Source of the DNA: Candidatus Binatia bacterium
GTDB taxonomy: Bacteria > Desulfobacterota > Binatia > UBA9968 > JAJDTQ01
Reading direction: 5' to 3'
Assembly: GCA_963666515.2 (NCBI GenBank)
Contig: OY762897.2
Span: 1,440,001 to 1,504,000, forward strand
Length of the DNA: 64,000 bases
In this document: positions 7,613-23,080 of the stretch, one piece after another
How the letters are laid out: the number at the start of each line of letters is the position of its first letter
How positions within the stretch are numbered: position 1 is the first letter of the stretch
Notes under the pieces: model-generated
What the model saw: only the letters and a program-made list of their open reading frames with translations
The model's database searches: none
What the model was told of the DNA's origin: nothing
Program-made: the position numbers and the translations under genes

Positions 7613-8946
7613 CACATGACCTCCCTTGCTTCGACGGCCTCGCCCACCAGTGAATTCGGCGTGGCATCGATAACCCGCACCCGCGCCATCTCGTCCGGCA
7701 CCGTGGCTTCGTCGGGCGTGAAATTGACGATCCGGTTGGTCCGGGTCCGGCCCATGAGCTGATCCCTGCCCAGCCGCGACGGTCCTTCCACGAGGACCTC
7801 CTGATCCGTGCCGATCAGGCTCCGGTTCTTCCGAAGGGAAATGCCCTTCTGCAACTCTTGCAGCCTCCGGCAACGTTCCCCCTTCACCTCGTCCGGGACG
7901 TCGTCGCGGTACACCTTGGCCGCCACCGTGCGGGGTCGCGGCGAATAGGTGAAGGTGAACATGTCGTCGTACTCGATTTCCCGAACGATGGACAAGGTCT
8001 CCTCGAACTCCACCTCGGTTTCACCCGGAAATCCTACGATCATGTCCGTGGTGACGGCAACCTCTGGCCGGCGCTGTCGCAGCGACCGGATCCGTTCCAT
8101 GTACTCGTCCAGCCGGTAGCCACGGCGCATGCGCCCCAGCACCGCATCGGAGCCGGACTGAAGCGGCAGATGAAGGTGCTCACAGAGGTTTTCCAGCCGG
8201 ACGAAGGCGTCCACCAGCTCCGGCGAGAGGTCCTGCGGGTGCGACGTCGTAAAGCGGATCCGCTGGATGCCGGGGATGTCGTTCACCCGCTCCAGCAACT
8301 CCGGGAACGATCTCTCCCCTTCCGCGGTCCGGCCGTAGGAGTTGACGTTCTGGCCCAGCAGCATCACTTCCTTGACGCCCTGCCGCACCAGCGCCTCCAC
8401 GTCCCGGACGATGTTCTCGCTGGGGCGGCTCACCTCTCGCCCGCGCACGCGCGGGACGATGCAGAAGCTGCAGACCTTGTTGCACCCCTGCATGATGGTG
8501 ACGTAGGCTTTGGCCCCGTCGGTCTCGGGCAGCCCAGACGGATTCTCCAGGTAGAACGGATCGCGGTAAAAGGCCGTTTCCACCGAGCGCCGGGCGGCCT
8601 CCCGCGCCTCCTCCACCATTTCCGGCAGCTTGTGCATGTTGTGGGTGCCGAACACGAGGTCCAGGTGCGGCGCCCGCCGCAGCAGCGTCTCCCCTTCCTG
8701 CTGGGCCACGCACCCGCCCACGCCCAGGATGACGCCCTTCTCTTCCTTGAGCCCGCGCCACCGTCCCAGTGCGCTATAGACCTTCTGCTCCGCCTTGTCC
8801 CGCACGCTGCAGGTATTCAGGATGATGAGATCCGCGTCGTCCGCGCTGTCGGTAGGCTCATAGTCCGCGGACTTCATGAGCTGCACGATCCGAGCCGAGT
8901 CGAGCTGGTTCATCTGGCAGCCCCAGGTTTGCACGTAGAGTTTCAT
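7612..8946 (-). CDS. miaB: tRNA-2-methylthio-N6-dimethylallyladenosine synthase
   Basis: TWGCQMN, NTCSVR, CNKVCSFC radical-SAM motif, C-terminal TRAM domain. Confidence 0.95.
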   Translation of the reverse strand: MKLYVQTWGCQMNQLDSARIVQLMKSADYEPTDSADDADLIILNTCSVRDKAEQKVYSALGRWRGLKEEKGVILGVGGCVAQQEGETLLRRAPHLDLVFGTHNMHKLPEMVEEAREAARRSVETAFYRDPFYLENPSGLPETDGAKAYVTIMQGCNKVCSFCIVPRVRGREVSRPSENIVRDVEALVRQGVKEVMLLGQNVNSYGRTAEGERSFPELLERVNDIPGIQRIRFTTSHPQDLSPELVDAFVRLENLCEHLHLPLQSGSDAVLGRMRRGYRLDEYMERIRSLRQRRPEVAVTTDMIVGFPGETEVEFEETLSIVREIEYDDMFTFTYSPRPRTVAAKVYRDDVPDEVKGERCRRLQELQKGISLRKNRSLIGTDQEVLVEGPSRLGRDQLMGRTRTNRIVNFTPDEATVPDEMARVRVIDATPNSLVGEAVEAREVM

Positions 8947-9141
8947 GGCTCGCTGGTTGCAGGAAACGATGAGATTTACCGCATGTTCGGTTCGCCGCAA
9001 CGTGGAGCCAGTATTTCACAGTTCGGAGGGTTTCGCCATCACCCGATGTTCGAGACCCCGTAGACACGCCACACCAGACAGGCGCCTTTCCGAGCATCCC
9101 GACACACAGGGCCGGCTCCTCGGTCGTGAATGGAGAAGGAC

Positions 9142-9174: not shown

Positions 9175-9318
9175 TGCGCAAATCGTGTCGAATCTTCCGC
9201 TTATCCCTTCATGGGACATTCAGGCCGAGCGGTTTCCTGGAGGGTGATGGATCAGATGGTTTCGGACCTCGCCGTCCTGCCACTCGGTCTCGCGTCGAGC
9301 CTTTGATGGTGATGCCAG

Positions 9319-11352
9319 TCACCTTAGTTTTTGGCGCTTCCCGCCAAAGGAGCCCTGCAAGTGATTTTCGTCTACAATCTGTTCGAAAATCCCCGCCACC
9401 TCCTCTGCATTTGGTCCGTAAAAGTCTCCGTCAATATACCCCACTCTCAAGTCCATATTCGGGTTTGGCTTGTGATTTCCTTGTAGGAAAAACGACCCGT
9501 CGCTGTTCTGCCTCAGATTCTCCCAACTAAGTACTCTCCTCCCCGTATACGGGGTGGTGATCCCTGGCAAACCTGGAAGATCGTCCGCGACGGTCAAGGT
9601 CACGTCCAATGTATCGTCAGCGAAGTGGTATTTCACTTCCGACGTGCCGCCCAAACTACCACTTTTGTCGTACTCACCAACACGGCTCCACCACCCGAAC
9701 ATCCCACCACGCCATGTGGCGACAGCTTCGTTGCCAAGAGGTCTCGGAAAGTCTTCATACAACTGGCCGAACGCAAAACTGTGTGTCGAGTGGCCACTGA
9801 GAAGAGTCTCGTCAGGAATCAACATCATACCCCAAGCGCCGTACTCTCCCCAGTTGCCTACAGCGTTGAAACCATTGAACAGATCTTGCTCATCCGGCGT
9901 CAGGGGTTGTCCGCTGGCGAGTTTGTCAAGGGCCGAGGTCATCTTCGGCAAATCTGGACCAAACACAAAGTATCCATTCGAATCCGGTTGGTCCGACTGC
10001 TTAACTATTTTACCTTCCAATTCTTCCAGAACATATCCTGCGCTTACGGTTTGACGGCTTCCACCTCGACGATTGTCAATTGTACAAAGCCTACCTCTAC
10101 TGCCCACGCCGGGACAAATCACCTCGTCGCGTAACAATTCTTGAGGGCGGTTTATGTAATAATAGGTTACGTCACTCAGTTCAAAATGGTCTGCACTGAA
10201 GTGGGGCAAGCCAGCAGGAAGATCAGGGTAAGACGTCGTTTGGACCCGTGGCGGCAACTTGACAACAGATCCGTTTATCGTTTCCGTAGGTGCAGCCCAG
10301 TACGTTAAATTGTACTCCGGATAAACCGTGTTATCAAGGAGAAATAGGCGGTTTACGGCACAGCCACCCGCGTCTGAACACGTATAGACGCGCCGCGTTC
10401 CATCTGCTGCCTGTACTACCTTCTCTTCTCCCATTCTCAAGAAAAAGCCGCTTTCGTCGTCGGTCACATGTATTCTATCATTCGAATACCATTCCCAGGA
10501 ATTCGGCCCCGTAGCTCGCAAATTTTCGAACTCACATTGGCTATCTTGGGCGCACGTAACGAATTGTTTACGGGAACTTCCAAGCAACATCACAGGGATT
10601 TGTTCCCACGGATCCAAGTGGCCAGTGAGGAGTCCGCTAGCGCCTTCCAGGTATAGCGGTCGGCCGCTATCTTGATCGAGCTCGATGCTGAACAGACCCG
10701 CTTGGTCCTTGGTGACGGATATTATACGACAACCTGGACCACCAGAGGGACACAGTAAAAAGGTACCTTGTGACAATCTTCCACCAGTACCGGCGTTCAG
10801 AGTAAAGGGGATACTCCCGCTCGTCTCTGCAGTAAGCATTCCCCCGGAATATCGGGCCTCCCCTCCAGCCCCATCTACCGTCACCACACATGCGGCCTCG
10901 CCCGCACATGTAAACCGAACGCCGTCACGCTCCAACGTCTCACCAGGCTCCACTTGAAAACTTTCACTGCCGGTAAAAGTGTGCCCCGCCGGTAAACTAA
11001 CGGGTGTCCCTTGCGAGGGCGGCGGAACAGCGGCCACGTTGAGCATTCCGCCTGTATATCGCGCCTCTCCTCCAGCCGCGTCTACCGCCACCACACATGC
11101 GACCTCGCCTGCACACGTAAACCGAACGCCGCCACGCTCCAACGTCTCACCAGGCTCCACTTGAAAACTTTCACCACCGATAAGAGTGTGCCCCGCCGGC
11201 AATGCAACGGTTGTCCCTTGCGACGACGGGGGAACTGTTGTTCGCTGCCCGGCGCTACTGCATGCCACACCGACAAGCGTCATCATCAACGCGATATACC
11301 GGATCGAACCCATGTGACCTAGAAACGGCCATCTTCTATGACCTCTACTCAT
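9319..11352 (-). CDS. Surface lipoprotein with TbpB-like C-terminal beta-barrel and an N-terminal tandem repeat
   Basis: Lipobox-like GVAC; ATWRGGM...GDFYGPNAEEVAGIF...GSFGGK; lower GC than flanks; start uncertain. Confidence 0.7.
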   Translation of the reverse strand: MSRGHRRWPFLGHMGSIRYIALMMTLVGVACSSAGQRTTVPPSSQGTTVALPAGHTLIGGESFQVEPGETLERGGVRFTCAGEVACVVAVDAAGGEARYTGGMLNVAAVPPPSQGTPVSLPAGHTFTGSESFQVEPGETLERDGVRFTCAGEAACVVTVDGAGGEARYSGGMLTAETSGSIPFTLNAGTGGRLSQGTFLLCPSGGPGCRIISVTKDQAGLFSIELDQDSGRPLYLEGASGLLTGHLDPWEQIPVMLLGSSRKQFVTCAQDSQCEFENLRATGPNSWEWYSNDRIHVTDDESGFFLRMGEEKVVQAADGTRRVYTCSDAGGCAVNRLFLLDNTVYPEYNLTYWAAPTETINGSVVKLPPRVQTTSYPDLPAGLPHFSADHFELSDVTYYYINRPQELLRDEVICPGVGSRGRLCTIDNRRGGSRQTVSAGYVLEELEGKIVKQSDQPDSNGYFVFGPDLPKMTSALDKLASGQPLTPDEQDLFNGFNAVGNWGEYGAWGMMLIPDETLLSGHSTHSFAFGQLYEDFPRPLGNEAVATWRGGMFGWWSRVGEYDKSGSLGGTSEVKYHFADDTLDVTLTVADDLPGLPGITTPYTGRRVLSWENLRQNSDGSFFLQGNHKPNPNMDLRVGYIDGDFYGPNAEEVAGIFEQIVDENHLQGSFGGKRQKLR
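10835..11236. repeat. Two-copy 207-bp (69 aa) tandem repeat inside the lipoprotein gene
   Basis: LPAGHT...ESFQVEPGETLER.GVRFTCAGE.ACVV...GGEARY.GGML occurs twice, offset 207 nt. Confidence 0.9.
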
Positions 11353-11460
11353 TTGAGCTCCCTTCTTTGCATTTGTGACTCCTGCATGGATTACGACGCA
11401 TGTACGCTAAGACGAAATTCTGACTGGAACTTCGGGCTAAGGCGAGAGTCTCCGTGGCAC

Positions 11461-11685
11461 TGGAGTTACCCCGTTTCAGTGGACAGTTGAGGGCGCTTGT
11501 CGCACCCAGTTCCGAATCGCTGAAGCCGAGCACTCAAACTCCCGAGCCGGCTCCGTTGGCCTGCGACCCCCGCGAACCAACTCAACCACCTGTTGCCGGT
11601 ATTCCGCCGCGAACGACGGACCTTTCCTCGACATACCGACACCTCCTGCGCACAGTTTAGTGTCCACCAAATCGGGTCAACTCCA
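11461..11685 (-). mobile_element. Internally deleted IS3-family element (225 bp, MITE-like)
   Basis: TG...CA IRs TGGAGTTACCCCGTTTCAGTGGACA / TGGAGTTGACCCGATTTGGTGGACA; retains the OrfA HTH start MSRKGPSFAAEYRQQVVELVR. Confidence 0.85.
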
Positions 11686-11700
11686 TGGTGCGATGTCGCG

Positions 11701-12732
11701 TTATTCGCGTTTAGCTCCGAATGAGCCGACGATCCTGACACCACGCTCGCCATGGCCGGCGGTGAAGGGGTCGGCGTCGAATTTGAAATAGGTGCCTGCC
11801 ACTTCCTGCCAGTCAGGGCCGTAGAAGCGTCCCTCGACGTTCCATCCGCCGATCTCAAAAACGTTGCCGAACATGCCGTGAGACTGAAGCTCTTGGACTT
11901 CTAAGCCGCGCCAGCGGACGCCAGTCGCGAGTTCCGGGATGGTTCCTTCGAAGTTTCTTAGAGCGATGTCTAGGGTCATGCTGCTGTCGAGGTCGTCCTC
12001 GTAGGTCGCGGTTATCATGGCGTCTCCCTGGGCAAATCCGGTTGCTCCTATGGCAAGGCGTCCAGGATCTTCGGTCCGGGCGACTTCTATGCGCCTTGCG
12101 GATGTAAAGCCCCTGTAAGTGGCTGTTCTGAATGGTGGATTGCCGACAGGCGGGATGCCGTGTACGTGCGCTTGAGCGTAACGGACGAAGTGATCACCCT
12201 CGACGAAGCCGTTGCTGAAAGTGGCAAAATAGTGCCAATCTCCCCAGGCGCCGTAGATGTGGCCGACGTGGATGTTGGCGTCGCTGAAGCCTCTGCCACT
12301 GAAATCTCCGGTCATTCCATTGCCCCCCGGGACTCGGAGGCTTGCTTGGGACACGTCGAAACTGGCGGGGCTTCCATAAAGACCAACAAGGGATTCGAAC
12401 CTCTGGGAGTCCTGTCTGCATGACTGGCTTCCTGCAGACTCGCAGGCTGCTTGTATATTAATTCGAGATCCGAAATCGTCTCCTTCTTCTGCTTTGGCGA
12501 TGATCGCTGCGATGGCTGTGTTCGCCTGTGATGAGCTTGTGACGTAGCCGGGCCCTCTCTGCGCCGTCGGCTCCTCCTGACCCGTGTTCTTGCCTGACTG
12601 CTGGTCTTCACCTGGCGTTGGCGGAAGAATCTCTTCTTGGAAGGAAGTGCCGCTGCAACCGGTAAGGACGAGCAAGGCAACAAGCGAAGAGGCTATTGAG
12701 GTCTTCTTCACAACATACATAGCGAGCTTCAT
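11701..12732 (-). CDS. Surface lipoprotein with TbpB-like C-terminal barrel
   Basis: LTGC lipobox; ATYRG...GRFYGPDWQEVAGTY...GSFGAK. Confidence 0.75.
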   Translation of the reverse strand: MKLAMYVVKKTSIASSLVALLVLTGCSGTSFQEEILPPTPGEDQQSGKNTGQEEPTAQRGPGYVTSSSQANTAIAAIIAKAEEGDDFGSRINIQAACESAGSQSCRQDSQRFESLVGLYGSPASFDVSQASLRVPGGNGMTGDFSGRGFSDANIHVGHIYGAWGDWHYFATFSNGFVEGDHFVRYAQAHVHGIPPVGNPPFRTATYRGFTSARRIEVARTEDPGRLAIGATGFAQGDAMITATYEDDLDSSMTLDIALRNFEGTIPELATGVRWRGLEVQELQSHGMFGNVFEIGGWNVEGRFYGPDWQEVAGTYFKFDADPFTAGHGERGVRIVGSFGAKRE

Positions 12733-12844
12733 AACAATCTCTCCTCTCAGGGTTGATTGGCTGTAGCGGGCAACGGTAAACCCTATAATTGCAAAACCCG
12801 CACCCTTAGTTGCTCCCGTCATTCGGTGAGAGTCCGTTGGTACG

Positions 12845-13333
12845 CTACTCCAGCACCTGCCACAACTTTCCGTCCTTCGACGCAACCTTCAGACACCTGA
12901 GCAAAATCAGCTTCGTTTCTGCCGCCGTCTTTTTCGCGCCTTCACTCATGGAACCGACCAATCCGGTGACGAGCCCCACGCCGGCGCCAATGCCGGCTGC
13001 TTCCCCGATCTTGACGCCGCCGACACCCGCCATGTCGAAGATCTGTGCCATCTCGGTGGCCATCGCGGCCCCTTGCACCGTGGATTGGGCCGTATCTGTA
13101 AGGGTCGCCAATTGTGCTTCCTGCGCGGCCGTCATTTGACGGTTGTTGGCGACGTTCCGACAAATCCCGAGCACCTGCTTGTATTTTTCCTCTTGTCCCG
13201 GCTCGACGTAGACCGACGGTATGTACTGTCCGGCTCCAAGCCCGCTGGAGTCGACGGCTCCCTTGTAGGCCGATCCACAACCAGCGAGAAAGAACAGCCA
13301 CAGAACCGCAGATACCTTGCCTATGTTTCGCAT
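12845..13333 (-). CDS. Glycine-zipper-like lipoprotein
   Basis: LAGC lipobox, paired Cys, Gly/Ala-rich segment; AGGAGG RBS. Confidence 0.7.
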   Translation of the reverse strand: MRNIGKVSAVLWLFFLAGCGSAYKGAVDSSGLGAGQYIPSVYVEPGQEEKYKQVLGICRNVANNRQMTAAQEAQLATLTDTAQSTVQGAAMATEMAQIFDMAGVGGVKIGEAAGIGAGVGLVTGLVGSMSEGAKKTAAETKLILLRCLKVASKDGKLWQVLE

Positions 13334-13625
13334 GTCGATTTCCTCCTCTAGTCCAAGCCGTCGTCTGACGGTCGCGTGAAAGCCGATCCGTACGTATAAG
13401 GGGCAGCGACAGGTTCTACGGGTTCCAAGCTACTGCACCTCTCGACGCTTTAAGGTCATGATCGACCTAAACGCACGATATTGGGTGTTGAGTGCACTAG
13501 CTAGACCACAACCTGACAATGATTGACATTTCAGGGCGCTAGCGATCAGGAGGATGCGCGAGGTGGAGGTGCAGGGCAGGGGTGCGAAGGTTGCAAATCT
13601 GTCCGGGGGGCTGACGGTGGATTTC

Positions 13626-14264
13626 TTACTTGGGCACCACGTAGTGCGGTAGTGACCGTTTTGCCTCGTCACAGGCGGCCTGTATGAAATTGACACCCGC
13701 CTCCACGGCGTTCGTTGAGCGACGGCTGAACGCGGTCCCGTACCGGATCAATAGCAGTGACAAGACGGACGTCGCTTCTTCGGCATCCCATTCACCCGCC
13801 CCGGACAACGTAGTCTGTATGGCGCCGTCAGCGGCCTTGAAGGCCGCCACAACCCGGTCTACGTCGCCCTTCTCTCCCAATGGCTTCCCGTCCAGTACGA
13901 GGCTTCTCGTGAGGAACAGGGACAACACGTACAGTGCTTCCCTGAAACCCCACTCGCTTGGGTTCAAGAGTTCCCGTTGAATGGTGTCTTCGGCAGCCGC
14001 CAAAACCGCCGTGAGGTCGAGGCGGTCACTCTGCGACTCGTTCCTGTTTTGTCCGTCACCGTCGCCCAATGCCGCCAAAGTGGCGAGCTCGATCTTCAAT
14101 GCCTGCGCGATGGCAATGGCCGACTTGAGCCGCGTAAGACTTCCGCCCTTCTCGATGCGCCGGATCGTTCGCCCATCCAGGACGGCCTCTTCGGCCAACC
14201 TTTCCGGGGTCCAACCAAGCTCCAGCCGCCTCCGCCGCATTAGTTCATGATTGACTCGGACCAT
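13626..14264 (-). CDS. XRE-family HTH protein
   Basis: RRRRLELGWTPERLAEEA...TIRRIEKG...IAQAL. Confidence 0.8.
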   Translation of the reverse strand: MVRVNHELMRRRRLELGWTPERLAEEAVLDGRTIRRIEKGGSLTRLKSAIAIAQALKIELATLAALGDGDGQNRNESQSDRLDLTAVLAAAEDTIQRELLNPSEWGFREALYVLSLFLTRSLVLDGKPLGEKGDVDRVVAAFKAADGAIQTTLSGAGEWDAEEATSVLSLLLIRYGTAFSRRSTNAVEAGVNFIQAACDEAKRSLPHYVVPK

Positions 14265-14521
14265 GGCAGGACCTCTCCGTTCTTGGCCCGCAAAAGCGAT
14301 TCGTCGAACTGAGAACCTGTTACCAGAGCTTCAACGGCACTAGCTATGCCATAACTCGGCAATGAGAGGCATTTAATGACACTCAAAGAGGAGAACTGTA
14401 TGAATGATGCGTTCGACGGGCACGACTGAACCTGCATGGCACCATTGATCCCCACTTCATCGACGCGCGGCTACCGGATGGTCCGCCAAACAGCGGCCCC
14501 GTCGGCGCTTGTGACGCTCGC

Positions 14522-14689
14522 TCATTCGGTATCGTCCTCGGAAGCTTCACTTGAGCGCTGGTTGAGCTGATCGAGTTCCGCCATCGACTCGAGAATTCGG
14601 AACGCGGCCTCTTCGAAAATGTCGCAATACCGGTTCTCTTTCCACTCTGGTCCATCGGGAGTGACATCCAAGAAGACGTTCCAACCCTT
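14522..14689 (-). pseudogene. 3' fragment of an HTH gene interrupted by the IS1595 element
   Basis: Removing the element restores the frame ...EWKGW-NVFLDVTPDG...DDTE*. Confidence 0.75.
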
Positions 14690-14738
14690 GGGAATTATAT
14701 ACTAGTTTACCCAAGGTGGTGGACTAGAGACGGGGGGT

Positions 14739-14990
14739 ATGCCGATGAGAATACGTTGGTGGCAAATGGGTTTGCATGTTGACGCAGAGTCCGAGGAGGA
14801 ACACGAGTCACTGGTACAGATATGGAGAGCCCTGAAAGGGTTGAACAACTTAGGATTCGTCGTTGATGATAAGGGTTGGTCTATCCGAACCGTACCAATC
14901 GGAGTTGTCGAGGCAGACGACAAGGAGGTCGTCGTTACTGTCGATGAAGCGGTTGAAGTGAAGGAAAAGCCTCTTGGCGGTGGTTCCTGA
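14739..14990 (+). CDS. Small hypothetical protein, paralog of 17635..17886
   Basis: MRIRWWQMGLHVDAESEEEHESL resembles MRVYWHYKYGLVLGPENEEEREHL. Confidence 0.5.
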   Translation: MPMRIRWWQMGLHVDAESEEEHESLVQIWRALKGLNNLGFVVDDKGWSIRTVPIGVVEADDKEVVVTVDEAVEVKEKPLGGGS

Positions 14991-15110
14991 TACGTTGATG
15001 AGCCATTGAGAATCCAGCACTTTCAGAGGGCGATAAACGGTTAGTGCCTTTCTTAGTTTAGGGTAGTCCTGTTCAGGATAGTTGAGGTCGTAGTTAATGA
15101 GGTATCTCAT
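14850..15110 (-). CDS. Small Cas2/VapD-like (ferredoxin-fold) protein
   Basis: MRYLINYDL N-terminal strand with Asp, LDSQW, IDSNDDLLV; 86 aa. Confidence 0.6.
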   Translation of the reverse strand: MRYLINYDLNYPEQDYPKLRKALTVYRPLKVLDSQWLINVSGTTAKRLFLHFNRFIDSNDDLLVVCLDNSDWYGSDRPTLIINDES

Positions 15111-15188
15111 GGTTGGCGTGTATTGCACGGGGTATGGCGTCTGTCAAGAGGGTTTTGGACGGGTCGGTTTTGCTGTGGAGAAAGGGGG

Positions 15189-15218
15189 TTGACAGGGTAG
15201 TTGGGGGTTTAGTAGGGT
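15189..15218 (+). promoter_or_regulatory. Possible sigma70 promoter upstream of structured RNA 1
   Basis: TTGACA-18-TAGGGT. Confidence 0.4.
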
Positions 15219-15224
15219 GCGAGG

Positions 15225-15358
15225 TTGCCAACGTCTTTCGGGAATCCGCTAAGTCGGGTTACCCGCTGAATAAAACAGCCTCTAGCCCGGCTCGGACTAG
15301 CTACCTGAGCCTAGGTAAATAGGTGGGGACTTCCCTCATTCCTGAGAGATGTTGGCAA
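15225..15358 (+). ncRNA. Predicted multi-branched structured RNA 1
   Basis: 21-bp closing stem whose three non-WC pairs are all G-U on the + strand; four internal hairpins. Confidence 0.55.
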
Positions 15359-15412
15359 TGGCCCGACACCAACGGGGTGTCGGCGAAATGCCTTATGAGG
15401 GAGGTACGGGGT

Positions 15413-15811
15413 ATGGCCAGATGGTTCAAGAAACTGAAGAAAGAATGGGAGACGGACTTTGAGAAGAACAATCCGCGTCAAGCCGCGACAGTGAGATGGT
15501 TGAACTCGGAACGGGCGCAAGCTGGGGTGCTTGGTTTTTTCCTTATGCCGTTGTTGTGCACTTTTTCTTGGGTGTGCTTGGTAGGTTTTCTCTGGCTGGT
15601 CGTGCTTTTGCTCAGAGGTGCGGCGAGTGGAGGAATGTCGATTCTTGAGGCGTACATATGGTATGAACTGATATTTGCTTCGATGGGCATTGCTGTTTTG
15701 GTGGGGTTGGTCCACGGATTAGCGAAATGGTTCAAGGCAACAAGGAGGCGAGCGGTTCGGGAAGAGGAGGAAATCCGTCTTGCCGTGCGACAACAGAGAA
15801 TGAATGAGTGA
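15413..15811 (+). CDS. Hypothetical membrane protein (IS passenger)
   Basis: GGGAGG RBS; two long hydrophobic segments. Confidence 0.6.
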   Translation: MARWFKKLKKEWETDFEKNNPRQAATVRWLNSERAQAGVLGFFLMPLLCTFSWVCLVGFLWLVVLLLRGAASGGMSILEAYIWYELIFASMGIAVLVGLVHGLAKWFKATRRRAVREEEEIRLAVRQQRMNE

Positions 15812-15895
15812 TTGGCCAAGTCTTGATGCGTATCATTGCTGAGGTCTGTACGGTTGTAGAGTGGCGGAACGGGGTTCCGTGTGGGAGTGAAGGCG

Positions 15896-16252
15896 ATGAA
15901 AACATACAAGATATTGGTAGGTTCGTCGGGTCGGGTTGAAGCGGTAAAACAGGGGTGGTCATGGCCAGCATTCTTCTTCAACATGTTTTGGTTGCCGGTC
16001 AAGAAGTTGTGGGGATGGAGGGCGGTTTTCTGGGGCGCTTGGGCTGCGATGGCGGTGACGACCACTTTTCTTGGCGTTCAGGGTGTTGAAGGGGCGGTGA
16101 ATATAGTGGTTGGCATTGTTCTTGGTCAGGTGGGAAATCAGATGAGGGAGAAGAACCTTGTATCGAGGGGGTTTGAGGTTCGTGATACGGTTCAGGCCGG
16201 GAATGTTGAAGCGGCTTTGGCTGCGTGGGAGAAGGGTGGTTCTGTTAGTTAG
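15896..16252 (+). CDS. DUF2628-like membrane protein
   Basis: EAVKQGWSWPAFFF...WLPVKKLW...GN..REKNLVSRGF. Confidence 0.75.
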   Translation: MKTYKILVGSSGRVEAVKQGWSWPAFFFNMFWLPVKKLWGWRAVFWGAWAAMAVTTTFLGVQGVEGAVNIVVGIVLGQVGNQMREKNLVSRGFEVRDTVQAGNVEAALAAWEKGGSVS

Positions 16253-16280
16253 GTTATATGTTGGGGGCTTGGAGTAGGGC

Positions 16281-16511
16281 GAGTTGTTTCAGTTTCGGGC
16301 ACCCTGTGCCGCTAGTCTATGCGGACGAGAAAGCAAAACGCCTTCTTTCCGTACCAACTAGCGAAAATCCTCGTCCCATTTTTCAATGTGATCGAGGATG
16401 TAAATTTCCACCGGTAGCCCGGTGGGGGTTCTGGGTAGGTCATGAGGCTACCCTCCTTTCTGGCGACGGTGCGCCCCTGAAAGGTGAGGGTGCCCGAAAC
16501 TGAAGCAATTC
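16281..16511 (+). ncRNA. Predicted multi-branched structured RNA 2
   Basis: 25-bp closing stem (two G-U pairs) enclosing four hairpins; non-coding interval. Confidence 0.65.
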
Positions 16512-16590
16512 ATACTTACTATGTAAGAGTCTGCATATGTCGGTCAGAATTTCAAGATGCCTTAATGGGCTATTTTCGTAATGGGTTCGT

Positions 16591-16619
16591 TTGACATTCA
16601 TCCAGCTTTGGGGTAAACT
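16591..16619 (+). promoter_or_regulatory. Transposase promoter overlapping an internal IR-like copy
   Basis: TTGACA-17-TAAACT; AGGAGG RBS at 16632-16637. Confidence 0.7.
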
Positions 16620-16646
16620 ACTTCCATAATTAGGAGGTAGGGAAAG

Positions 16647-17615
16647 ATGTCACAGAAGGCACCGGGCAAGGCATTTAGGCAGGGGCTGTCGATCAAGGCG
16701 TTGTTCAAGATGTTTCCTGATGACGAGACGGCGGAGAAGTGGTTTACTGAGGTCAGGTGGCCGGAAGGGGTTCGGTGTCCTAAGTGTGAGTCCGACAACA
16801 TCCAGGAGCGGGCTACGCGGAAGCCTCAGCCGTATCGTTGCCGGTCTTGCCGGAAGGACTTTTCAGTCAAAACGGATACCCTGATGCACAACTCGCCGTT
16901 GGGTTATCAGACGTGGGCGGTGGCGATTTATCTCATGACCACGGGATTGAAGGGGGTGTCGTCAATGAAGTTGCACCGGGATTTGGATGTGACGCAAAAG
17001 ACGGCGTGGCACTTGGCGATGAGAATCCGGGAGACCTTCGAGGACAAGGGGGTTGCGTTTGCTGGGCCGGTAGAGGTTGACGAGACGTATGTGGGTGGCA
17101 AGGAGAAGAACAAGCACGCGGACAAGAAGTTGAAGGCGGGGCGTGGGGCGGTGGGCAAGGCGGCGGTGGTGGGGATGAAGGACCGGGAGACTAACCGGGT
17201 GACGGCGGAGGCGGTTGAAAGCGTGGACGGGTTGACTTTGAAGGAATTCGTGCTGGACCAAGTGGTGGATGGTGCGAAGGTTTACACGGACGAGAACCGG
17301 GGGTATCAGGGGCTTCCGAACCACGAGACGGTGAATCACTCGGTCAAGGAGTACGTGGACGGGATGGCGCATACCAACGGGATTGAGTCCTTTTGGGCGG
17401 CATTGAAGCGGGGTTATCACGGTGTGTACCACAAGATGAGTGCGGAGCATCTGGACCGCTATGTTGGGGAGTTTGCGGGGCGACACAACATCAGGGACGA
17501 GGACACGGTAGTTCAGATGGCCGCTGTTGTACGAGGAATGGTCGGCAAGCGGTTGAGGTATAGGAATCTGGTTGCTTCACCGGAGAAGAAGATGCCGGGG
17601 AATGATGTCTTTTGA
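16647..17615 (+). CDS. IS1595-family (ISXO2-like) DDE transposase
   Basis: CPKC...CRSC zinc ribbon, VEVDETYVGG, VYTDE, HTNGIESFW. Confidence 0.95.
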   Translation: MSQKAPGKAFRQGLSIKALFKMFPDDETAEKWFTEVRWPEGVRCPKCESDNIQERATRKPQPYRCRSCRKDFSVKTDTLMHNSPLGYQTWAVAIYLMTTGLKGVSSMKLHRDLDVTQKTAWHLAMRIRETFEDKGVAFAGPVEVDETYVGGKEKNKHADKKLKAGRGAVGKAAVVGMKDRETNRVTAEAVESVDGLTLKEFVLDQVVDGAKVYTDENRGYQGLPNHETVNHSVKEYVDGMAHTNGIESFWAALKRGYHGVYHKMSAEHLDRYVGEFAGRHNIRDEDTVVQMAAVVRGMVGKRLRYRNLVASPEKKMPGNDVF

Positions 17616-17634
17616 GAAGGGGGGGGGTAGCCCT

Positions 17635-17886
17635 ATGCGTGTTTATTGGCATTATAAGTACGGCTTGGTATTGGGTCCAGAAAATGAAGAAGAGAGGGAG
17701 CATCTTAAAGTAGTGCAAAAGGTGTTTGAGATACCTAAAGAGGGTGAACCCGAATACGTGGGGGTAGAGAGGAGAGCGAGAGAGCACCGTTACGCGATGT
17801 ATCAGAAGCGTCAGAGGGATGAGTCAGCGGGGAAGGTCCCTGACATAGGGGGCGTCGCGGATGAGGGTGGGGGGGTGCATGACTGA
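17635..17886 (+). CDS. Small hypothetical protein, paralog of 14739..14990
   Basis: Similar N-terminus; G-rich RBS region; 83 aa. Confidence 0.5.
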   Translation: MRVYWHYKYGLVLGPENEEEREHLKVVQKVFEIPKEGEPEYVGVERRAREHRYAMYQKRQRDESAGKVPDIGGVADEGGGVHD

Positions 17887-18117
17887 TGCGTCGTCTATGG
17901 AGGTGATGATTAGTTCGATACACATTCCGTCGTCTAGGTCGAGTTTGGCAAGAATGGATCTAAGGATGGCCTTGGCTTCTTTGTCGCTTTTCACGGTCCT
18001 TTGAGACTGGAGTATGGCTTTGGCGTTGTAGTCGATCTCTACAACGGCTTTGTCGATACTGAGATAGATGGCGGTGTCGTCTATGTGAGCATCATAACTG
18101 ACAAGGTAGAGTTCCAT
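17824..18117 (-). CDS. Second small Cas2/VapD-like protein
   Basis: MELYLVSYDA, ILQSQ, LDDG..ELII; resembles 14850..15110 (both contain PTLI near the C-terminus). Confidence 0.55.
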   Translation of the reverse strand: MELYLVSYDAHIDDTAIYLSIDKAVVEIDYNAKAILQSQRTVKSDKEAKAILRSILAKLDLDDGMCIELIITSIDDASVMHPPTLIRDAPYVRDLPR

Positions 18118-18295
18118 GACATGTTCTCCCTTCAGTGCGGGGATGGGCGTTTCCGTAGCACGGGGATGGGATTAGGGTCAAGGACTGGGACTGTGCGGCG
18201 GTTGATGGGTTGGTAGCCGCTGAGGAGAAGCCTGTGGTACAGGCAGGAAGCGATGTGTTTTGATGGCAAAGGATGGACGGGTCACAGCTGGGTCT

Positions 18296-18469
18296 ATGGA
18301 TGGGAAAAGCGATGGTGTGAAGAAAAGCAAGCGGGGTCGTCCGGGGAGCCCGAAGTATCAGGAGTCCATCCGCATTGACGCCAATCCGGAAGCCGTTGCT
18401 AGGGCCATCATGAAGGGGCCACCAAAGCCGGATGGAGAGTGGCGCTATCTCAAGAACAAGGTTTGCTGA
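18296..18469 (+). CDS. Small basic protein at the right end of IS1595
   Basis: KRGRP...IDANPEAVARAIMKGPPK..EWRYL; 57 aa. Confidence 0.5.
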   Translation: MDGKSDGVKKSKRGRPGSPKYQESIRIDANPEAVARAIMKGPPKPDGEWRYLKNKVC

Positions 18470-18503
18470 TAGGCAAGGTTGGGTAAACTAGTATATAATT
18501 CCC

Positions 18504-18850
18504 CAACCCTTCCACTCCCCGCTCAAACGAAACATGAACTCCGGGTGTGCCGGTAACTTGCCATCTGCACCATCGTAGCCCTCTTTAAGCCATGTCTTGA
18601 TGATGGACTTGGCGTTTCCCAGGAAGTCCTCCAGCTCGCCTAGCATCGCCCTGATGTCGCTGCGCAGAACCAACTCCTCGAAGGGAATGTCGAGCACGGT
18701 TGCGATATTCCTGGCCGTCTTGACGAACACCGGGTGACCACTTTCCGCTCGCCTATAGGTGGCTTCCGAGATCTCCTCCAAGAAACCCTTTTCGGCGATG
18801 AGGTCCATTACTCCGTTTATACTCAACCCCCGATGTTCTCTTTCGCGGCG
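18504..18850 (-). pseudogene. Middle fragment of an XRE-HTH gene with an integrase-repeat-like motif
   Basis: RREREHRGLSI...ISEATYRRAESG...IATVLDIPFEEL; LPAHP....EWKGW. Confidence 0.7.
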
Positions 18851-20730
18851 CCGACCGGGGCAGGAGCTACTTCACCCACCGCCTGGTGCGCTCCGAGCGC
18901 AGCGGCGTGCGGGTGCGGCAGCGCACCCTGCTCAATCTCGGCAGTGACTTCGAGGTGGCCCCGGAACATTGGGCGGTGTTGTGCGCGCGCGTCGAACAAT
19001 TGATCGACCCGCAAGCGGTGCTGGTGGAGTTGGGGTGTTCGGAAGAGGTGGAACGGGAGGCCCAACGGATCGCCATGCAACTGGTGAGCCGGGCGCCTCG
19101 GGCGGAAGGCGGCGGAGGGGATGTGCAGGCCGTGGATGTGGACTCGTTGGAGTTGGTGCGCCCGCGCTCGGTGGGGGTGGAGCACGTCGGGCTTTGGGCC
19201 ATGGAGCAGGTGGGGCTGGACGAATGTTTGGAAGGCCTTGGGTTCAACGGTCGGCAAAGGGCGGCAGCCATGGCGTTGATCATCGGACGCATGGCACAGC
19301 CCGGATCGGAACGGGCCACTTGGCGGTGGTTGTGCGACCGCAGCGCTCTCGGCGAGTTGCTCGGCGTGGACTTCGAGAGCCTGAGCCTGATGCGGCTCTA
19401 CCGTGCCTCGGATGCGCTGATGGCCCATCGCAAGGCCGTCGAGAGCCACTTGTTCGAGCGGGTGACGGAGTTGTTTGGCCTGGGGCACACGGTGACGCTG
19501 TACGATCTCACCAACACCTTCTTCGAGGGCGAAGCTCAAGGCCAGCCCAAGGCCAGACGGGGGCACTCGAAAGAGAAGCGCAGCGACTGTCCGCTGCTCA
19601 CCCTGGGGCTGGTGCTCGACGGTTCCGGCTTCGTGCGCCGCTCCGAAGTGTTTGCCGGCAACGTCGATGAAGACAAGACCCTGGCGTCCATGCTTGAAGC
19701 CCTCAAGGCCCCCCGCCAGGCGCTGGTGGTGATGGATGCGGGCATTGCCACCGAGAACAACATCGCCTGGTTGCGCAGCCACGGCTACCGCTATCTGGTG
19801 GTCAGCCGCCAACGCACCCGGCTGTTCGATCCCGAACTGGCTACCGCCATCGAGACCCGTTCCCAACAAAAGGTTCACCTGCACCGGGTGGTCGATGAGG
19901 ACCACGACGAGGTGCGGCTTTACTGCTACTCCGAAGCTCGCGCCAAGAAAGAAGAAGGCATTTCCGAACGCTTTGCCGCACGCTTCGAGGGCGCCTTGCA
20001 AAAACTCCACGAGGGGCTCTCCCGCCCCCGCACCCGCAAGGCCCTCGACCATGTCTGGCAACGCATCGGGCGCATCCAGGAGCAAAGCCGGGGGGTCGCT
20101 CAGCATTACCAGGTCGAGGTCGTGGCCGACATCCAAGGCGACAAGGCCGTGGCCGTCACCTGGAAACGCCAGCCCCGCCCGGGCACCATGCTCACTCATC
20201 CCGGCGTCTATTGTCTGCGCACCAACCTCGACGACTGGGACCCGCAAGCCCTCTGGCGCACTTACACCATGCTCACCGACCTCGAAGCCGTATTCCGCTC
20301 CCTCAAGTCCGAACTCGGCCTGAGGCCCATCTTCCACCAAAAGCAGCACCGCTCCGACGGCCATTTGTTCATCACCGTCATCGCCTACCAACTCGTGCAG
20401 ATTGTCCGCCGCCGACTCGCCGCCTTGGGCGAGACCGCCAGTTGGACCACCTTGCGCCGCATACTCCAGGGCCAACACCGGGTCACCGCCACTTTCCGAC
20501 GCAAGGACGGCCGCACCCTGCATGTCCGCAAGGTCACCCAGGCCGAACCCCAGCAGCTTGAAATCTACAACGCTCTCCGCCTCGATTCCGCGCCTGGCGG
20601 TATCAAAAAGTTGATCGTCTGAACTCTCGGAATTCCCGTTGAATCACCAGAATGTAGTGCCAGAAGACCAAAATCGCCCCGCTAACACCCCGATTTATAA
20701 CGACTTTCAAATACCCTTGTTAAACCTGGG
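18850..20730 (+). mobile_element. IS1634-family element, left end missing
   Basis: Transposase starts abruptly at SYFTHRLVRSER; probable right end ...TTAAACCTGGG; no left IR seen. Confidence 0.7.
18886..20622 (+). CDS. IS1634-family transposase (N-terminus probably truncated)
   Basis: LYDLTNTFFEG, GHSKEKRSD, VMDAG, EAVFRSLKSELGLRPIFH. Confidence 0.9.
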   Translation: MRSERSGVRVRQRTLLNLGSDFEVAPEHWAVLCARVEQLIDPQAVLVELGCSEEVEREAQRIAMQLVSRAPRAEGGGGDVQAVDVDSLELVRPRSVGVEHVGLWAMEQVGLDECLEGLGFNGRQRAAAMALIIGRMAQPGSERATWRWLCDRSALGELLGVDFESLSLMRLYRASDALMAHRKAVESHLFERVTELFGLGHTVTLYDLTNTFFEGEAQGQPKARRGHSKEKRSDCPLLTLGLVLDGSGFVRRSEVFAGNVDEDKTLASMLEALKAPRQALVVMDAGIATENNIAWLRSHGYRYLVVSRQRTRLFDPELATAIETRSQQKVHLHRVVDEDHDEVRLYCYSEARAKKEEGISERFAARFEGALQKLHEGLSRPRTRKALDHVWQRIGRIQEQSRGVAQHYQVEVVADIQGDKAVAVTWKRQPRPGTMLTHPGVYCLRTNLDDWDPQALWRTYTMLTDLEAVFRSLKSELGLRPIFHQKQHRSDGHLFITVIAYQLVQIVRRRLAALGETASWTTLRRILQGQHRVTATFRRKDGRTLHVRKVTQAEPQQLEIYNALRLDSAPGGIKKLIV

Positions 20731-20985
20731 TTAGGCTTAGATTTTTCGAGACGGGTCTCCGTGGTTGATCTCCTGACCCGATTATACTTACGCGCGCGGA
20801 ATCAAGTCCAATCATCTCAGTGTTGAAATGAAAGTTCTTTCATCTCGTGTTGAATCGCAGGGGAAAACGAGCGGTACTACCAGGCAACACCTCCGGTTGG
20901 GCAGCCAACGAGGTGGAAGAATGGCGCGGAAAACCGCCGCACGTCAACGACAACGGCTCCGCGACGGGCTTCAAGTACACACGGT

Positions 20986-21654
20986 TCAACGAGCCGCGTA
21001 TTCGGCGAAGAGGGAGTCGAAAGAGGAGAAATCCGACAGCAATCGTAGTGTAGCGAAGGCAGGGAAATCGAGGGATGACCCACCCTGTTTTCGCCAGAAA
21101 AGCAGCGCTCTTTCAGGCCGGCGCCAGACGAATCCGTCCGCACGGATATTCTCCGAAACCCTTACGAGGAAGAACGCTTTGATCGTCCCGGGACGCGTGC
21201 CGGTCCACGTCGAGAAGAACAGCAAGCGGGTAAGGTCGACGTAAAGATCTTGCGCCTTGAGGTATGCCGCAAGTTCCCGAGCGCGCCGACCGGACGGCGG
21301 GTCGCCACGCAAAGGCAGGGTCCGCCGCACAGCTTCGCGAGACGTACCTCGGACAACGAAGAGAACCCCGGAGACATCGAGCAAGACCCTCATCCCCGCC
21401 ACCCAGTGACCCATAGCGCGCGCGGGTCTCATCCCATGGCCCAGAAATCCGCGGGCTTGCGTTCCCGTGAGTCCGTGACAGCGCTCCAACACACGTGGGG
21501 CGTAGTCGTCGGCTTCCACGTCGCCCTCTGGAAGCCACCCCAAGTGTCCTTCGGCGCCGGCCAACGCCACCTCGGATCGCAACAGCACCTGGAGCCCATA
21601 ACGCCGGCTGTCCCGCACGCACACCAGCGCCACCCGGTCAGCGCCGTCATCCAT
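20986..21654 (-). CDS. Hypothetical protein, possibly a degenerate Nudix fold
   Basis: Spacing resembles Nudix19-like proteins (QVLLR..LPEGDVEADD...SGVL) but the Nudix box is eroded. Confidence 0.45.
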   Translation of the reverse strand: MDDGADRVALVCVRDSRRYGLQVLLRSEVALAGAEGHLGWLPEGDVEADDYAPRVLERCHGLTGTQARGFLGHGMRPARAMGHWVAGMRVLLDVSGVLFVVRGTSREAVRRTLPLRGDPPSGRRARELAAYLKAQDLYVDLTRLLFFSTWTGTRPGTIKAFFLVRVSENIRADGFVWRRPERALLFWRKQGGSSLDFPAFATLRLLSDFSSFDSLFAEYAAR

Positions 21655-21703
21655 CAGACACCCGCTCTCCCATCACCTCCGCAACCGGGACACCTGCGCG
21701 CGG

Positions 21704-23080
21704 TCAGCCCTTCCACACGGGCAGCCACAAGGGTTCCGCCAGCACGTAGTCCTTTTGCGCGATACGATCCAGGGCTTGGCGCAACTGTCCCACGCTGGTC
21801 TCTTCCAGGGTGATCACGAACGGGAGGACCTCGCCGGGTGCGGCCCCGCCCGTCCCTGCCCCGACCAGGGATTCCAGTTCCTCCTCGCCGTGGTCGAGTT
21901 GCCAGATCTCCGAGACGTTGATCTGCTTGTCGCCGAAAATCTCACAAAGCTCGCCGACGATGCCGCTCTGGTCCCGCACCACGAAGCGCACGTAGAAGGA
22001 GGCCCTCAGATCGTCTTCCGGCCGCACCGAGTCTACCCCGGACCGGATACTTTCCACCGGCAGGAAGGGCGAATCGCCGGAACGTGTCACCAACTCATGG
22101 ACGTCGCCCAGGACGGCCACCGCGGTGGCCCCGCCCCCGGCCCCCGGACCCGCGAACACGTAGTCCCAGTCGCCGGCGTCGGGCGCGCCCCCGTCGCTCA
22201 CCTCACCCTTGAAGAACACCGCGTTGGTGACGCCGTCGATGCCCGCGATGGGATGGCTTTCGGGCACCACCATCGGCGTCACCATGGCCTCCAGCGCGCC
22301 CTCGACGTTGCGCGCGAGGGCCACCGACTTGATGGTGCTGCAGCCCTTCCGGGCGGCGTAGAGGAAATCGATGGCGTGGACGCGCTCGATGCCCTTGCGG
22401 TGGATGGCGCCCGGCGCAAGACGTGCACCGAAGGTGATGGACGCCAGCAGCAGCAGCTTGGCCTCGGCGTCGCGGCCGCTCACGTCGGCGTCCGGGTCGG
22501 CCTCGGCGTAGCCCAGGGCCTGGGCCGACGCCAGGGCGTCGTCATAGGACCGGCCCCGTTGAGCCATTTCCGTCAGGATGTAGTTGCAGGTGCCGTTGAC
22601 GAGGCCATACACGGCTGCGGGCCGTTCGGCGCTGAGGCTCTGGGTCAGCGGTCCGATGATGGGGATGCCGCCGCCGACGCACGCCTCGAAGCGCACCGCC
22701 CGGCCGCATTCCCGGGCGGTGGTCCAGATCTCGTCTCCGTGGGCTACCAGCAGCGCCTTGTTGGCGGTGGCCACGGACTTTCCGTGACGGAGCGCGTCCA
22801 CCACCCATTCCTTCTGAATCCGCAGGTCCCCGGCGCCGCCGGCGCCCAAAACCTCCACCACGATGTCCACGTCGGGGTGGCGGGTGACCTCCGTCGCCTC
22901 CCTGGTGAACAGTTCCGGCGAAGCCGCGTACTTGGCTTTGCTCCCGGGCGTGCGCGTAAACACCTTGACCACCTCGGCCTCCACGCCGAAGCGCGCCAAG
23001 TGGCCGGCAGAGACCAAGTCGTGGACCGCGCCGCCCACGGTGCCGGCGCCGAGGATGCCGATGTGGACCCGGGATGCCAT
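21704..23080 (-). CDS. hom: Homoserine dehydrogenase with ACT domain
   Basis: GAGTVG, TANKAL, FEACVGGGIP, NGTCNYIL, GYAEADP. Confidence 0.95.
   Translation of the reverse strand: MASRVHIGILGAGTVGGAVHDLVSAGHLARFGVEAEVVKVFTRTPGSKAKYAASPELFTREATEVTRHPDVDIVVEVLGAGGAGDLRIQKEWVVDALRHGKSVATANKALLVAHGDEIWTTARECGRAVRFEACVGGGIPIIGPLTQSLSAERPAAVYGLVNGTCNYILTEMAQRGRSYDDALASAQALGYAEADPDADVSGRDAEAKLLLLASITFGARLAPGAIHRKGIERVHAIDFLYAARKGCSTIKSVALARNVEGALEAMVTPMVVPESHPIAGIDGVTNAVFFKGEVSDGGAPDAGDWDYVFAGPGAGGGATAVAVLGDVHELVTRSGDSPFLPVESIRSGVDSVRPEDDLRASFYVRFVVRDQSGIVGELCEIFGDKQINVSEIWQLDHGEEELESLVGAGTGGAAPGEVLPFVITLEETSVGQLRQALDRIAQKDYVLAEPLWLPVWKG

Follow-up and report, generated by a model that had tools for sequence, protein, structure and literature searches.

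The small RNA sRNA-Xcc1 was first found in Xanthomonas campestris pv. campestris, where the available text of the report describes a species of about 100 nt, detected on Northern blots and with mapped ends 88 nt apart (PMC2996969). Homologous transcripts have been described in both cells and vesicles of Xylella, according to the accessible part of that paper (PMC12189769). In the portions of both papers at hand, the targets given are computational predictions (PMC2996969, PMC12189769). In the available part of a preprint on Xanthomonas integrons, the most widespread cassette has sRNA-Xcc1 upstream of symE (10.1101/2025.06.18.660453), and the accessible part of a preprint on the APSE phage puts it upstream of an ORF6N protein. 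The family is listed in Rfam as RF02221, by the release information available since release 11. In this work, we describe a related element on the plus strand of a stretch of 64,000 nucleotides, hereafter the window, from a Candidatus Binatia bacterium (contig OY762897.2, positions 1,440,001 to 1,504,000). Two other systems bear on the comparison: the C4 RNA of phages P1 and P7 and the sar RNA of phage P22 are leader-encoded regulators of phage antirepressor operons. As for sRNA-Xcc1 itself, the title of the paper by Chen et al. of 2011 reportedly calls it trans-acting and places it in integron cassettes, transposons and plasmids.

The element lies between a candidate promoter and the Shine-Dalgarno (SD) sequence of an open reading frame (ORF). 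Its parts in the window, with both flanks, are as follows.

15189-15218, plus strand: sigma-70-like promoter, with the -35 box TTGACA at 15189-15194, an 18-nt spacer and the -10 box TAGGGT at 15213-15218
15225-15245, plus strand: 5' arm of stem P1, 21 bp with 15338-15358; an extension not present in canonical sRNA-Xcc1
15246-15252, plus strand: linker J1, CCGCTAA; the family consensus at this place is CCCGY-NNN
15253-15261, plus strand: 5' strand of helix H, GTCGGGTTA, pairing with 15359-15367 over 9 bp (7 Watson-Crick and 2 G-U)
15262-15327, plus strand: hairpin 1, made of P2 (15262-15267/15322-15327), P3 (15278-15281/15313-15316) and P4 (15289-15295/15304-15311)
15268-15277, plus strand: internal loop of hairpin 1, GAATAAAACA, opposite AAATA at 15317-15321 (base-by-base check and comparison)
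15328-15349, plus strand: linker J2/1 and the small local hairpin 2 (HP2), 15332-15338 with 15343-15349, -3.7 kcal/mol in a local fold of the window copy
15338-15358, plus strand: 3' arm of P1 (base-by-base check)
15359-15367, plus strand: 3' strand of helix H, TGGCCCGAC, which doubles as the 5' strand of P5
15363-15383, plus strand: hairpin P5, CCGACACC-AACGG-GGTGTCGG, 15363-15370 with 15376-15383, 8 bp
15395-15415, plus strand: SD region, with GAGGGAGG at 15398-15405 and the start codon ATG at 15413-15415

An earlier sequence-only reading of this stretch had proposed a structured non-coding RNA or cis-regulatory leader directly behind a promoter, and all the pairings that it names exist at the positions given. 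The long stem has 21 bp, of which 18 are Watson-Crick and 3 are G-U, with no mismatch; read on the opposite strand, the G-U pairs become A-C. The promoter TTGACA-18-TAGGGT is present as described, 6 nt separate TAGGGT from the stem, and the further hairpin behind the stem, CCGACACC/GGTGTCGG, is there with its 8 bp. The inner hairpins of that reading were divided: CCGC/GTGG is P2 and is kept in relatives, whereas CGGG/CCCG, CTG/CAG, CTAG/CTAG and TACCT/AGGTA are not conserved pairings. The conserved inner pairings are instead P3, GCCT/AGGT, and P4, GGCTCGG/CCTGAGCC, which closes the loop ACTAGCTA. Written as RNA, hairpin 1 of the window has the internal loop GAAUAAAACA/AAAUA and the P3 pairing GCCU/AGGU. 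The stretch 15328-15349 is pyrimidine-rich, contains CTTCCCTCAT and overlaps the P1 3' arm. The folding calculation that the sequence-only reading had asked for placed the plus strand of 15220-15420 at -95 kcal/mol, far below the -69.5 ± 5.0 of 200 dinucleotide shuffles (z -5.13, none as good), versus a z of -2.24 for the minus strand. With a z of about -5.1, this fold is not a product of chance. Transcription would start from the TTGACA promoter, a site that a generic promoter scan did not list because its -10 box falls below the threshold of the scan. In the terminator scan of the window, P5 was not called as a terminator and has no U-tract behind it, and no terminator-like site was found between the RNA and the ORF. 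ARAGORN reported no tRNA or tmRNA.

A BLAST-type search found a single copy in the genome of the window; five genomes of its genus gave partial matches. From six sequences, all of this genus, we built a covariance model, R1. The six share the -35 box, a closing stem whose sequence differs and whose pairing is kept, a nearly invariant core and a downstream hairpin, followed by an SD sequence and an ORF. R1 gave 73 matches in 22 of the 28 genomes of the genus, up to 19 in one genome and six in that of the window; the other five of these six are visible only to the covariance model, not to the BLAST-type search. Within the order, the element occurs in 21 of 27 genomes of one family, 3 of 5 of a second and none of 90 of a third. 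Beyond the order, a motif of the core was scanned against one genome per species of bacteria and archaea and returned at least 116 loci. Among the matches listed, 115 of 116 are full-length R1 matches, 99 of 100 loci in one run of the model and 16 of 17 in another, and the remaining one, labelled Pseudomonas, is not. By record title, the 115 are labelled Alphaproteobacteria (39), Binatia (14, with 2 more under Deltaproteobacteria/Syntrophobacterales), Gemmatimonadota including Longimicrobiales (14), Latescibacterota (12), Gammaproteobacteria/Pseudomonadales (11), Acidobacteriota (10), Nitrospirota (5), Spirochaetia (2), Rhodothermales (1), Entotheonella (1) and others (4), and the records with copies carry labels of at least nine phylum-level groups. 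Nearly all of the listed loci are in metagenome-assembled genomes; one is in a cultured strain, Nitrospirillum amazonense BR 11880. The core motif was also found at 124 or more loci in metagenome contigs, and all these motif-scan counts are samples of unknown order. In other phyla too the element can be multi-copy, with five records holding 2-6 copies each. A BLAST search with the Nitrospirillum copy found relatives on plasmids of Phenylobacterium zucineum and of two Sphingomonas species. The motif of the extended form had no match in 2.9 million viral contigs, and similarity searches gave none in phage records and, with the Phenylobacterium copy, none in Escherichia coli genomes.

Three observations on single genomes or loci belong here. 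One genome (G032; L007, L010-L020) has 12 short matches of 20-23 nt, at 96-100% identity, to window positions 15239-15261; they cover the upper part of the P1 5' arm, J1 and GUCGGGUUA, their sites differ from those of its five full-length copies, and they may be another repeat family that shares this segment. In a second genome (G020; L066, L067, L068, and the second copy of L066 with L070), identical RNAs accompany identical lipoprotein genes (422 aa, 454 aa), and these sets occupy two or three places in the one genome; there the module therefore lies inside larger repeats. In the genus of the window, L027, L028, L029, L032, L034 and L035 are an orthologous locus at which an RNA variant with GGACCCGACU and a GUAAUU-type P4 loop precedes, in several species, a secreted staphylococcal-nuclease-like protein. 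This is vertical inheritance beside horizontal spread.

Conservation of the pairing was assessed in a cross-phylum alignment, A4, of 101 rows (100 distinct). Of its paired cells, 95.7% can pair, compared with 87.0 ± 0.4 after shuffling (0 of 500 shuffles reach the observed value) and 25.8-50.1% when the partners are slid against each other. Changes on both sides were seen at 15 of 25 pairs, among them 6 of 6 in P2, 3 of 4 in P3 and 4 of 6 in P4; one P2 pair, for example, is C-G in 46 rows and U-A in 43. Given that A4 had been fitted to the model, we added tests that need no alignment. The two arms of P1, compared in 188 of 190 copies (two were left out for short arms), form duplexes with a median of -30.6 kcal/mol when cognate and -13.6 when non-cognate, and 164 of 188 cognate versus 28 of 1880 non-cognate pairs reach -25 kcal/mol or lower. 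P1 has a median length of 19 bp (range 14-25), and the plus-strand RNA gives the stabler P1 in 130 of the 188 copies. Helix H was tested as GUCGGGYNN against NNRCCCGRC, the second of which directly follows P1; 164 of 190 copies have both anchors and were used. Position 8 is paired in 163 of 164 (141.0 ± 1.7 in shuffles) and position 9 in 135 of 164 (74.0 ± 4.9), values that none of 1000 shuffles reached; position 7 is uninformative (159 vs 158.3) and position 10 unpaired (48). In P5, 149 of 169 local folds have CCCGR paired with a YCGGG further downstream. This R is found in G-C (118), A-U (19) and G-U (18) pairs and never in A-C, so that an A always stands opposite U. For hairpin 2, the first 24 nt after hairpin 1 were folded with their first 10 nt swapped between copies (186 used, 4 left out); cognate sequences gave -4.09 and chimeric ones -2.94 ± 0.12 kcal/mol, and none of 300 permutations was as low. 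Sequence features around the fold recur as well, with TTGAC 60-69 nt 5' of GTCGGG in 85 of 174 family copies and CCCG within 12 nt 5' of GTCGGG in 106 of 175. Covariation among homologs, whose absence the sequence-only reading had named as grounds for dropping its proposal, is thus clear, and the proposal itself gains support: the RNA is conserved, covaries and is linked to a promoter, and more than 180 copies stand before ORFs. A tertiary pairing between UAGC of the P4 loop and GCUA of J1, and a kissing contact through the AGCU palindrome, were considered and set aside; by eye, the loop variants GUAAUU and GUCGCU come without a matching change in J1.

The comparison with Rfam had two sides. 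The whole window has no RF02221 match at the gathering score, which for this family is 53 bits; a group II intron elsewhere was the only match. Around the element, a search at E ≤ 10 returned chance matches only (rpfG, 15.4 bits; mir-3927, 16.4 bits), and the genome of the window has no RF02221 match at E ≤ 1. By the criterion of Rfam, the window copy is not a member of RF02221. Through its relatives it belongs to the wider sRNA-Xcc1 family, a link that the sequence-only reading, which had suggested an Rfam scan, did not notice. RF02221 matches alphaproteobacterial members over its full length, at 39.8 bits for the Nitrospirillum copy (L204), 34.5 bits for that on a plasmid of Phenylobacterium zucineum HLK1 (NC_011143.1, L330) and 26.4 bits for that on a plasmid of Sphingomonas insulae KCTC 12872 (L331). 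On 20 other extended copies it gave one match, again over its full length, at 28.2 bits, and none at 53. In its alignment on a family member, the outer helix corresponds to H and the first hairpin to P2, the internal loop and P3, and the second hairpin to the segment taken up here by hairpin 2 and the 3' arm of P1. In the opposite direction, viral contigs were scanned with a short motif of the RF02221 consensus. At least 103 viral loci were found; of 20 tested, 14 score 54-78 bits, above the cut-off of RF02221. R1, run on 40 of these canonical-motif loci, matched 19 at E ≤ 1 and 12 at E < 1e-4 (lowest 5e-7), and its alignments span the full model with the 28-31 nt of P4 deleted. Since each covariance model finds members of the other, the window RNA is homologous to sRNA-Xcc1, of which it is an extended, long-form variant.

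The two forms have in common an outer 9-bp helix, GNCNGGNNG:CNNCCNGNC, a first hairpin that has a CCC/GGG stem and the internal loop AAUACAA/GAAUA, and a second, small hairpin; both lie a few tens of nt 5' of an ORF, probably on mobile or acquired DNA, and are multi-copy. The long form differs in that it adds a P4 insertion of 27-31 nt with a GUAGCU-type loop, a 5' arm of about 20 nt that forms P1, a hairpin P5 with one strand in common with H, and a promoter of its own about 30 nt further upstream. Given the position of this promoter 5' of the outer helix, the primary transcript is expected to be longer than 88-100 nt. The long form precedes genes for exported proteins, whereas the canonical form precedes antirepressor genes or symE; the long-form motif is not found in the viral contigs, in contrast to at least 103 loci of the canonical motif. 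In viral contigs, the canonical copies lack a complementary 5' flank. Nine of 10 that we examined sit 33-41 nt 5' of antirepressor-type genes of four Pfam families (AntA 3, Phage_pRha 3, KilA-N 2, P22_AR_N 1, none 1). Since canonical copies thus keep a constant place before changing genes, a portable cis element fits them. At the viral loci L332-L351, the true sRNA-Xcc1 copies directly follow a terminator-like hairpin with a T-run, and by eye the strands of their outer helix resemble an SD mimic, GGGAGG, and an anti-SD, CCUCCC.

Helices of the long form share strands: the loop of hairpin 2 and its 3' half are also part of P1, and one strand of P5 is also part of H. P1 and H are not nested; they are related as in a pseudoknot and joined by 0-3 nt. 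Given these shared strands, the non-nested P1 and H and the covariation of all four helices, we read the RNA as having two alternative folds. Our preferred reading, which we hold at a probability of about 55%, is that the element is a 5' leader that acts in cis, has spread horizontally and toggles between the two. It would be the promoter-proximal leader of an mRNA that covers ORF 15413-15811 and probably also the following DUF2628 gene; by its position it would lie in a 5' untranslated region (UTR). The core has the three-way fold of sRNA-Xcc1, with the outer helix H (GUCGGGUUA:UGGCCCGAC), hairpin 1 with its AAUA..A/AAUA loop, and the small hairpin 2. The added 5' arm of about 20 nt pairs with the hairpin 2 loop, with its 3' half and with the tail that leads to H, which gives the long stem P1. 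State 1 would then consist of P1 and P5. State 2 would combine H with hairpin 2 and leave the 5' arm and the P5 3' half free. We suppose that a factor recognising the invariant core decides between the folds, and that the choice sets downstream expression in cis through translation initiation, elongation or stability. Promoter, leader and SD would form a portable module that has spread horizontally, mainly in front of genes for exported proteins and lipoproteins.

Several points weigh against this reading. The window copy folds to -89.8 kcal/mol with P1 and to -59.8 with H enforced; across the family, the advantage of P1 is 17.4 ± 5.4 kcal/mol, and P1 is part of the minimum free energy fold in 156 of 162 copies. 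This advantage is above the reach of a typical ligand, so that H may coexist with P1 in a strained pseudoknot, or H may form only once the 5' arm is held back or taken away. For the linkers (J1, with a median of 7 nt; J2/1, 7 + 3 nt), the reach-to-length ratio has a median of 1.22, with values below 1 in 52 of 175 copies. Absolute steric exclusion of P1 and H was considered and rejected; the linkers are just long enough for a strained pseudoknot. The window scan found no intrinsic terminator after P5, and ensemble folding of 131 copies gave the same accessibility of the SD in both states (0.46 vs 0.39, no different). The downstream genes share export and no pathway, and therefore suggest no ligand. 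The copies are related to each other, so the shuffle statistics given above overstate their independence. The start and end of the RNA and read-through into the ORF are predictions from sequence; among the sequencing runs listed, no RNA run contains the region. In the available text of PMC2996969, sRNA-Xcc1 is treated as a discrete sRNA of about 88-100 nt. A trans-acting role is also what the 2011 title is said to announce.

The sequence-only reading had further suggested that the RNA might sequester the ribosome-binding site, an idea that is supported in part. The complementarity is real in the window copy, in which CTTCCCTCAT (15330-15339) can pair with ATGAGGGAGG (15395-15404) over 10 bp, including one G-U; sequestration is not established for the family, in which ensemble folding gave no state-dependent change of the SD. 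The corresponding stretch in the family is 73% pyrimidine, and its modelled pairing to the SD region has -12.4 kcal/mol, where shuffled sequences reach -10.1 (n = 146). In 72 of the 146 copies, the pairing is more than 2 kcal/mol better than that of their own shuffles, and the window copy ranks 34th. The modelling hints at a modest enrichment of anti-SD complementarity in the family. The anti-SD stretch lies within the 5' strand of hairpin 2, which would become free when P1 forms.

The genes behind the element share a destination. The start codon lies a median of 45.5 nt from the end of the model (interquartile range 38-77), and the ORF is preceded by an SD and has the same orientation. A signal-peptide-like N-terminus was found in 111 of 148 non-redundant downstream ORFs (75%) versus 322 of 2764 (12%) in the background, and a lipobox, often next to a glycine run, in 55 of 148 (37%) versus 32 of 2764 (1.2%). 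These figures come from a crude rule, with the ORFs of the window genome as background and duplicates removed; 31 elements had no ORF by this rule. A Pfam scan of 51 downstream proteins of the genus gave SNase (4), TbpB_B_D (2), Peptidase_S8 (2), CsgG, DUF2628, DUF4875, DUF7424, fn3/LapA, GT87 and TctC, and no family for 34. DUF2628 likewise follows the RNA at a second locus (L050). The window RNA itself lies in a low-GC island at about 9300-21700, with 53-61% GC compared with 65-68% in the flanks, and for five of the six copies in the genome, local GC does not exceed the 11th percentile. The island ORFs that were scanned gave no integrase. Genes of and around the island are the following.

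7612-9000, minus strand: MiaB-like radical-SAM gene, island border
9319-11352 and 11701-12885, minus strand: two TbpB_B_D-type lipoprotein genes, in the island
13626-14264, minus strand: HTH_3 gene, in the island
15413-15811, plus strand: ORF directly downstream of the RNA, 132 aa, membrane-type with hydrophobic segments, no Pfam family
15881-16252, plus strand: second ORF of the putative operon, DUF2628 (PF10947, 7.2e-10), a membrane protein of unknown function
16647-17615, plus strand: IS1595 transposase, in the island, 1.2 kb 3' of the RNA
21704-23080, minus strand: homoserine dehydrogenase gene, island border

Divergent from the RNA promoter is an ORF of 92 aa (14850-15128, minus strand) with a CRISPR_Cas2 match below threshold (19.3 vs 23.8 bits), and a small ORF at 17824-18117 (minus strand; 97 aa) has no family. 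The window has a second patch of mobile DNA. There, a group II intron domain (RF00029, 59485-59583, minus strand, 54.5 bits) adjoins an ORF of 439 aa (59673-60992, minus strand) with no Pfam match at 1e-3; a stretch of 49% GC lies at 60-62 kb, and a DDE_Tnp_1 transposase gene (61877-63637, plus strand) follows.

Three other explanations have to be set against the two-state leader. The RNA could be a stand-alone sRNA acting in trans, released near P5 by termination or processing and pairing with other mRNAs, with the ORF merely adjacent or read through. The species of about 100 nt described in the available text on X. campestris (PMC2996969) and the transcripts in Xylella cells and vesicles, as given in the accessible part of that report (PMC12189769), agree with such a role, as do the multi-copy occurrence, known from some sRNA families, and P5 as a possible 3' end. 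However, P5 has no U-tract, and the promoter of the RNA is the only evident one for an ORF that starts a median of 45 nt downstream. The most variable parts, the arms of P1, pair with one another, and structured loops hold the invariant parts, which leaves no obvious exposed seed common to the copies; the targets named in the literature are, in the parts available, computational predictions only; and the link to signal-peptide-like proteins (75% vs 12%) would go unexplained. We regard a trans-acting sRNA as possible but doubtful.

An unlikely explanation, in our estimate, is a module of promoter and stabiliser that does not switch, in which P1 at the 5' terminus would shield the mRNA from decay that depends on the 5' end and the core would persist since it folds well or binds a housekeeping factor. 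P1, by far the stablest fold, does begin a few nt from the inferred start, the module moves with its promoter on low-GC, probably acquired DNA, and the modelled accessibility of the SD is independent of the state. What a stabiliser would not need are the invariant internal loops and the P4 loop, nor H, hairpin 2 and P5, which nevertheless covary and compete with P1 or each other; canonical relatives, moreover, keep the core without P1 in front of genes that need tight control. A role at the level of DNA, as an integron attC-like site, a miniature inverted-repeat transposable element or another repeat whose inverted repeats merely look like helices, would be in keeping with the multi-copy, cross-phylum distribution, the IS1595 transposase 1.2 kb downstream, and the integron cassettes, transposons and plasmids of which the 2011 title reportedly speaks. 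The arms differ between copies and yet stay complementary, unlike termini that a transposase recognises; the G-U pairs favour one strand; and the element stands with a promoter 5' of ORFs, not at the 3' end of a cassette, with no integrase among the island ORFs scanned. We consider this explanation very improbable.

The two-state leader resembles several known systems in part. With C4 and sar it shares the logic of an RNA in or beside the leader of a gene that is kept tightly off, and the canonical sRNA-Xcc1 copies share their place, before AntA, KilA-N, Rha or P22_AR_N genes; in the part of the Xylella paper available, a table lists RF01695 (C4) beside an sRNA-Xcc1 copy (PMC12189769). It differs from C4 and sar in that no similarity of sequence or structure was seen: the Rfam scans of the window and, at E ≤ 10, around the element gave no C4 match. 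Nor did complementary targets come to light downstream. Like riboswitches and attenuators, the element has a structured core in a putative 5' UTR with invariant loop nucleotides and covarying helices, and pairs of helices that compete for a strand and exclude each other (P1 and hairpin 2; H and P5), in a 1:2/3:4 versus 2:3 logic. In contrast to them, it has no terminator and no demonstrable SD occlusion, and its competitor arm, 5' of the core and stabler by about 17 kcal/mol, is atypical. Nor do the downstream families point to a ligand: they are heterogeneous exported proteins, most of the 51 scanned without a Pfam family. A long variable closing stem, a structured centre and mobile DNA are features shared with attC sites and with the msr-msd of retrons. 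Both were considered and rejected. An attC site lies 3' of cassettes, next to intI, with R/L boxes and little conservation of its core, whereas this element lies 5' of ORFs with a promoter and a highly conserved centre, and no integrase was found among the ORFs scanned. A retron requires a reverse-transcriptase gene downstream; here the 132-aa membrane protein and DUF2628 follow, and none of the 51 downstream proteins scanned has a reverse-transcriptase domain.

The sRNA-Xcc1 family itself was already known as RF02221. In the parts of the literature that the search could access, with Chen et al. 2011 outside it, the long form, its spread across phyla with a promoter, the link to exported-protein genes, the antirepressor context of the canonical form and the architecture of competing helices were not found; the founding paper of Chen et al. 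2011 may cover some of the homologue contexts. For the targets of sRNA-Xcc1, the available portions of this literature give predictions only. The literature searched contains no paper that names both sRNA-Xcc1 and sponge, and a broader word search turned up nothing of relevance. Isolate codes in many of the record titles are, we presume, those of bins from marine-sponge microbiomes. The names of the metagenome contigs with the core motif contain no habitat terms, and two sequencing runs labelled sponge metagenome contain small shares of the region (0.11 and 0.08), which bear no information on habitat. A speculative step beyond the two-state leader, and an improbable one, is that the extended RNA is a sensor, riboswitch-like or gated by a protein, built on the sRNA-Xcc1 fold, through which one signal would reach shared surface or secreted proteins across phyla that live together. 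If this were true, the RNA would regulate the exported proteome across a whole community and in a habitat-linked way, and an Rfam family named as an sRNA would in reality consist of cis-acting leaders. The long form of sRNA-Xcc1 escapes the Rfam model. Both forms are constant leaders before changing genes, namely antirepressors for the canonical form in viral contigs and exported proteins and lipoproteins for the long form, which has competing helices built in. The finding gives an example of a regulatory RNA that has spread together with its promoter over at least nine phylum-level groups, and it turns an orphan sRNA into a testable cis-regulatory module for which cultured carriers exist.

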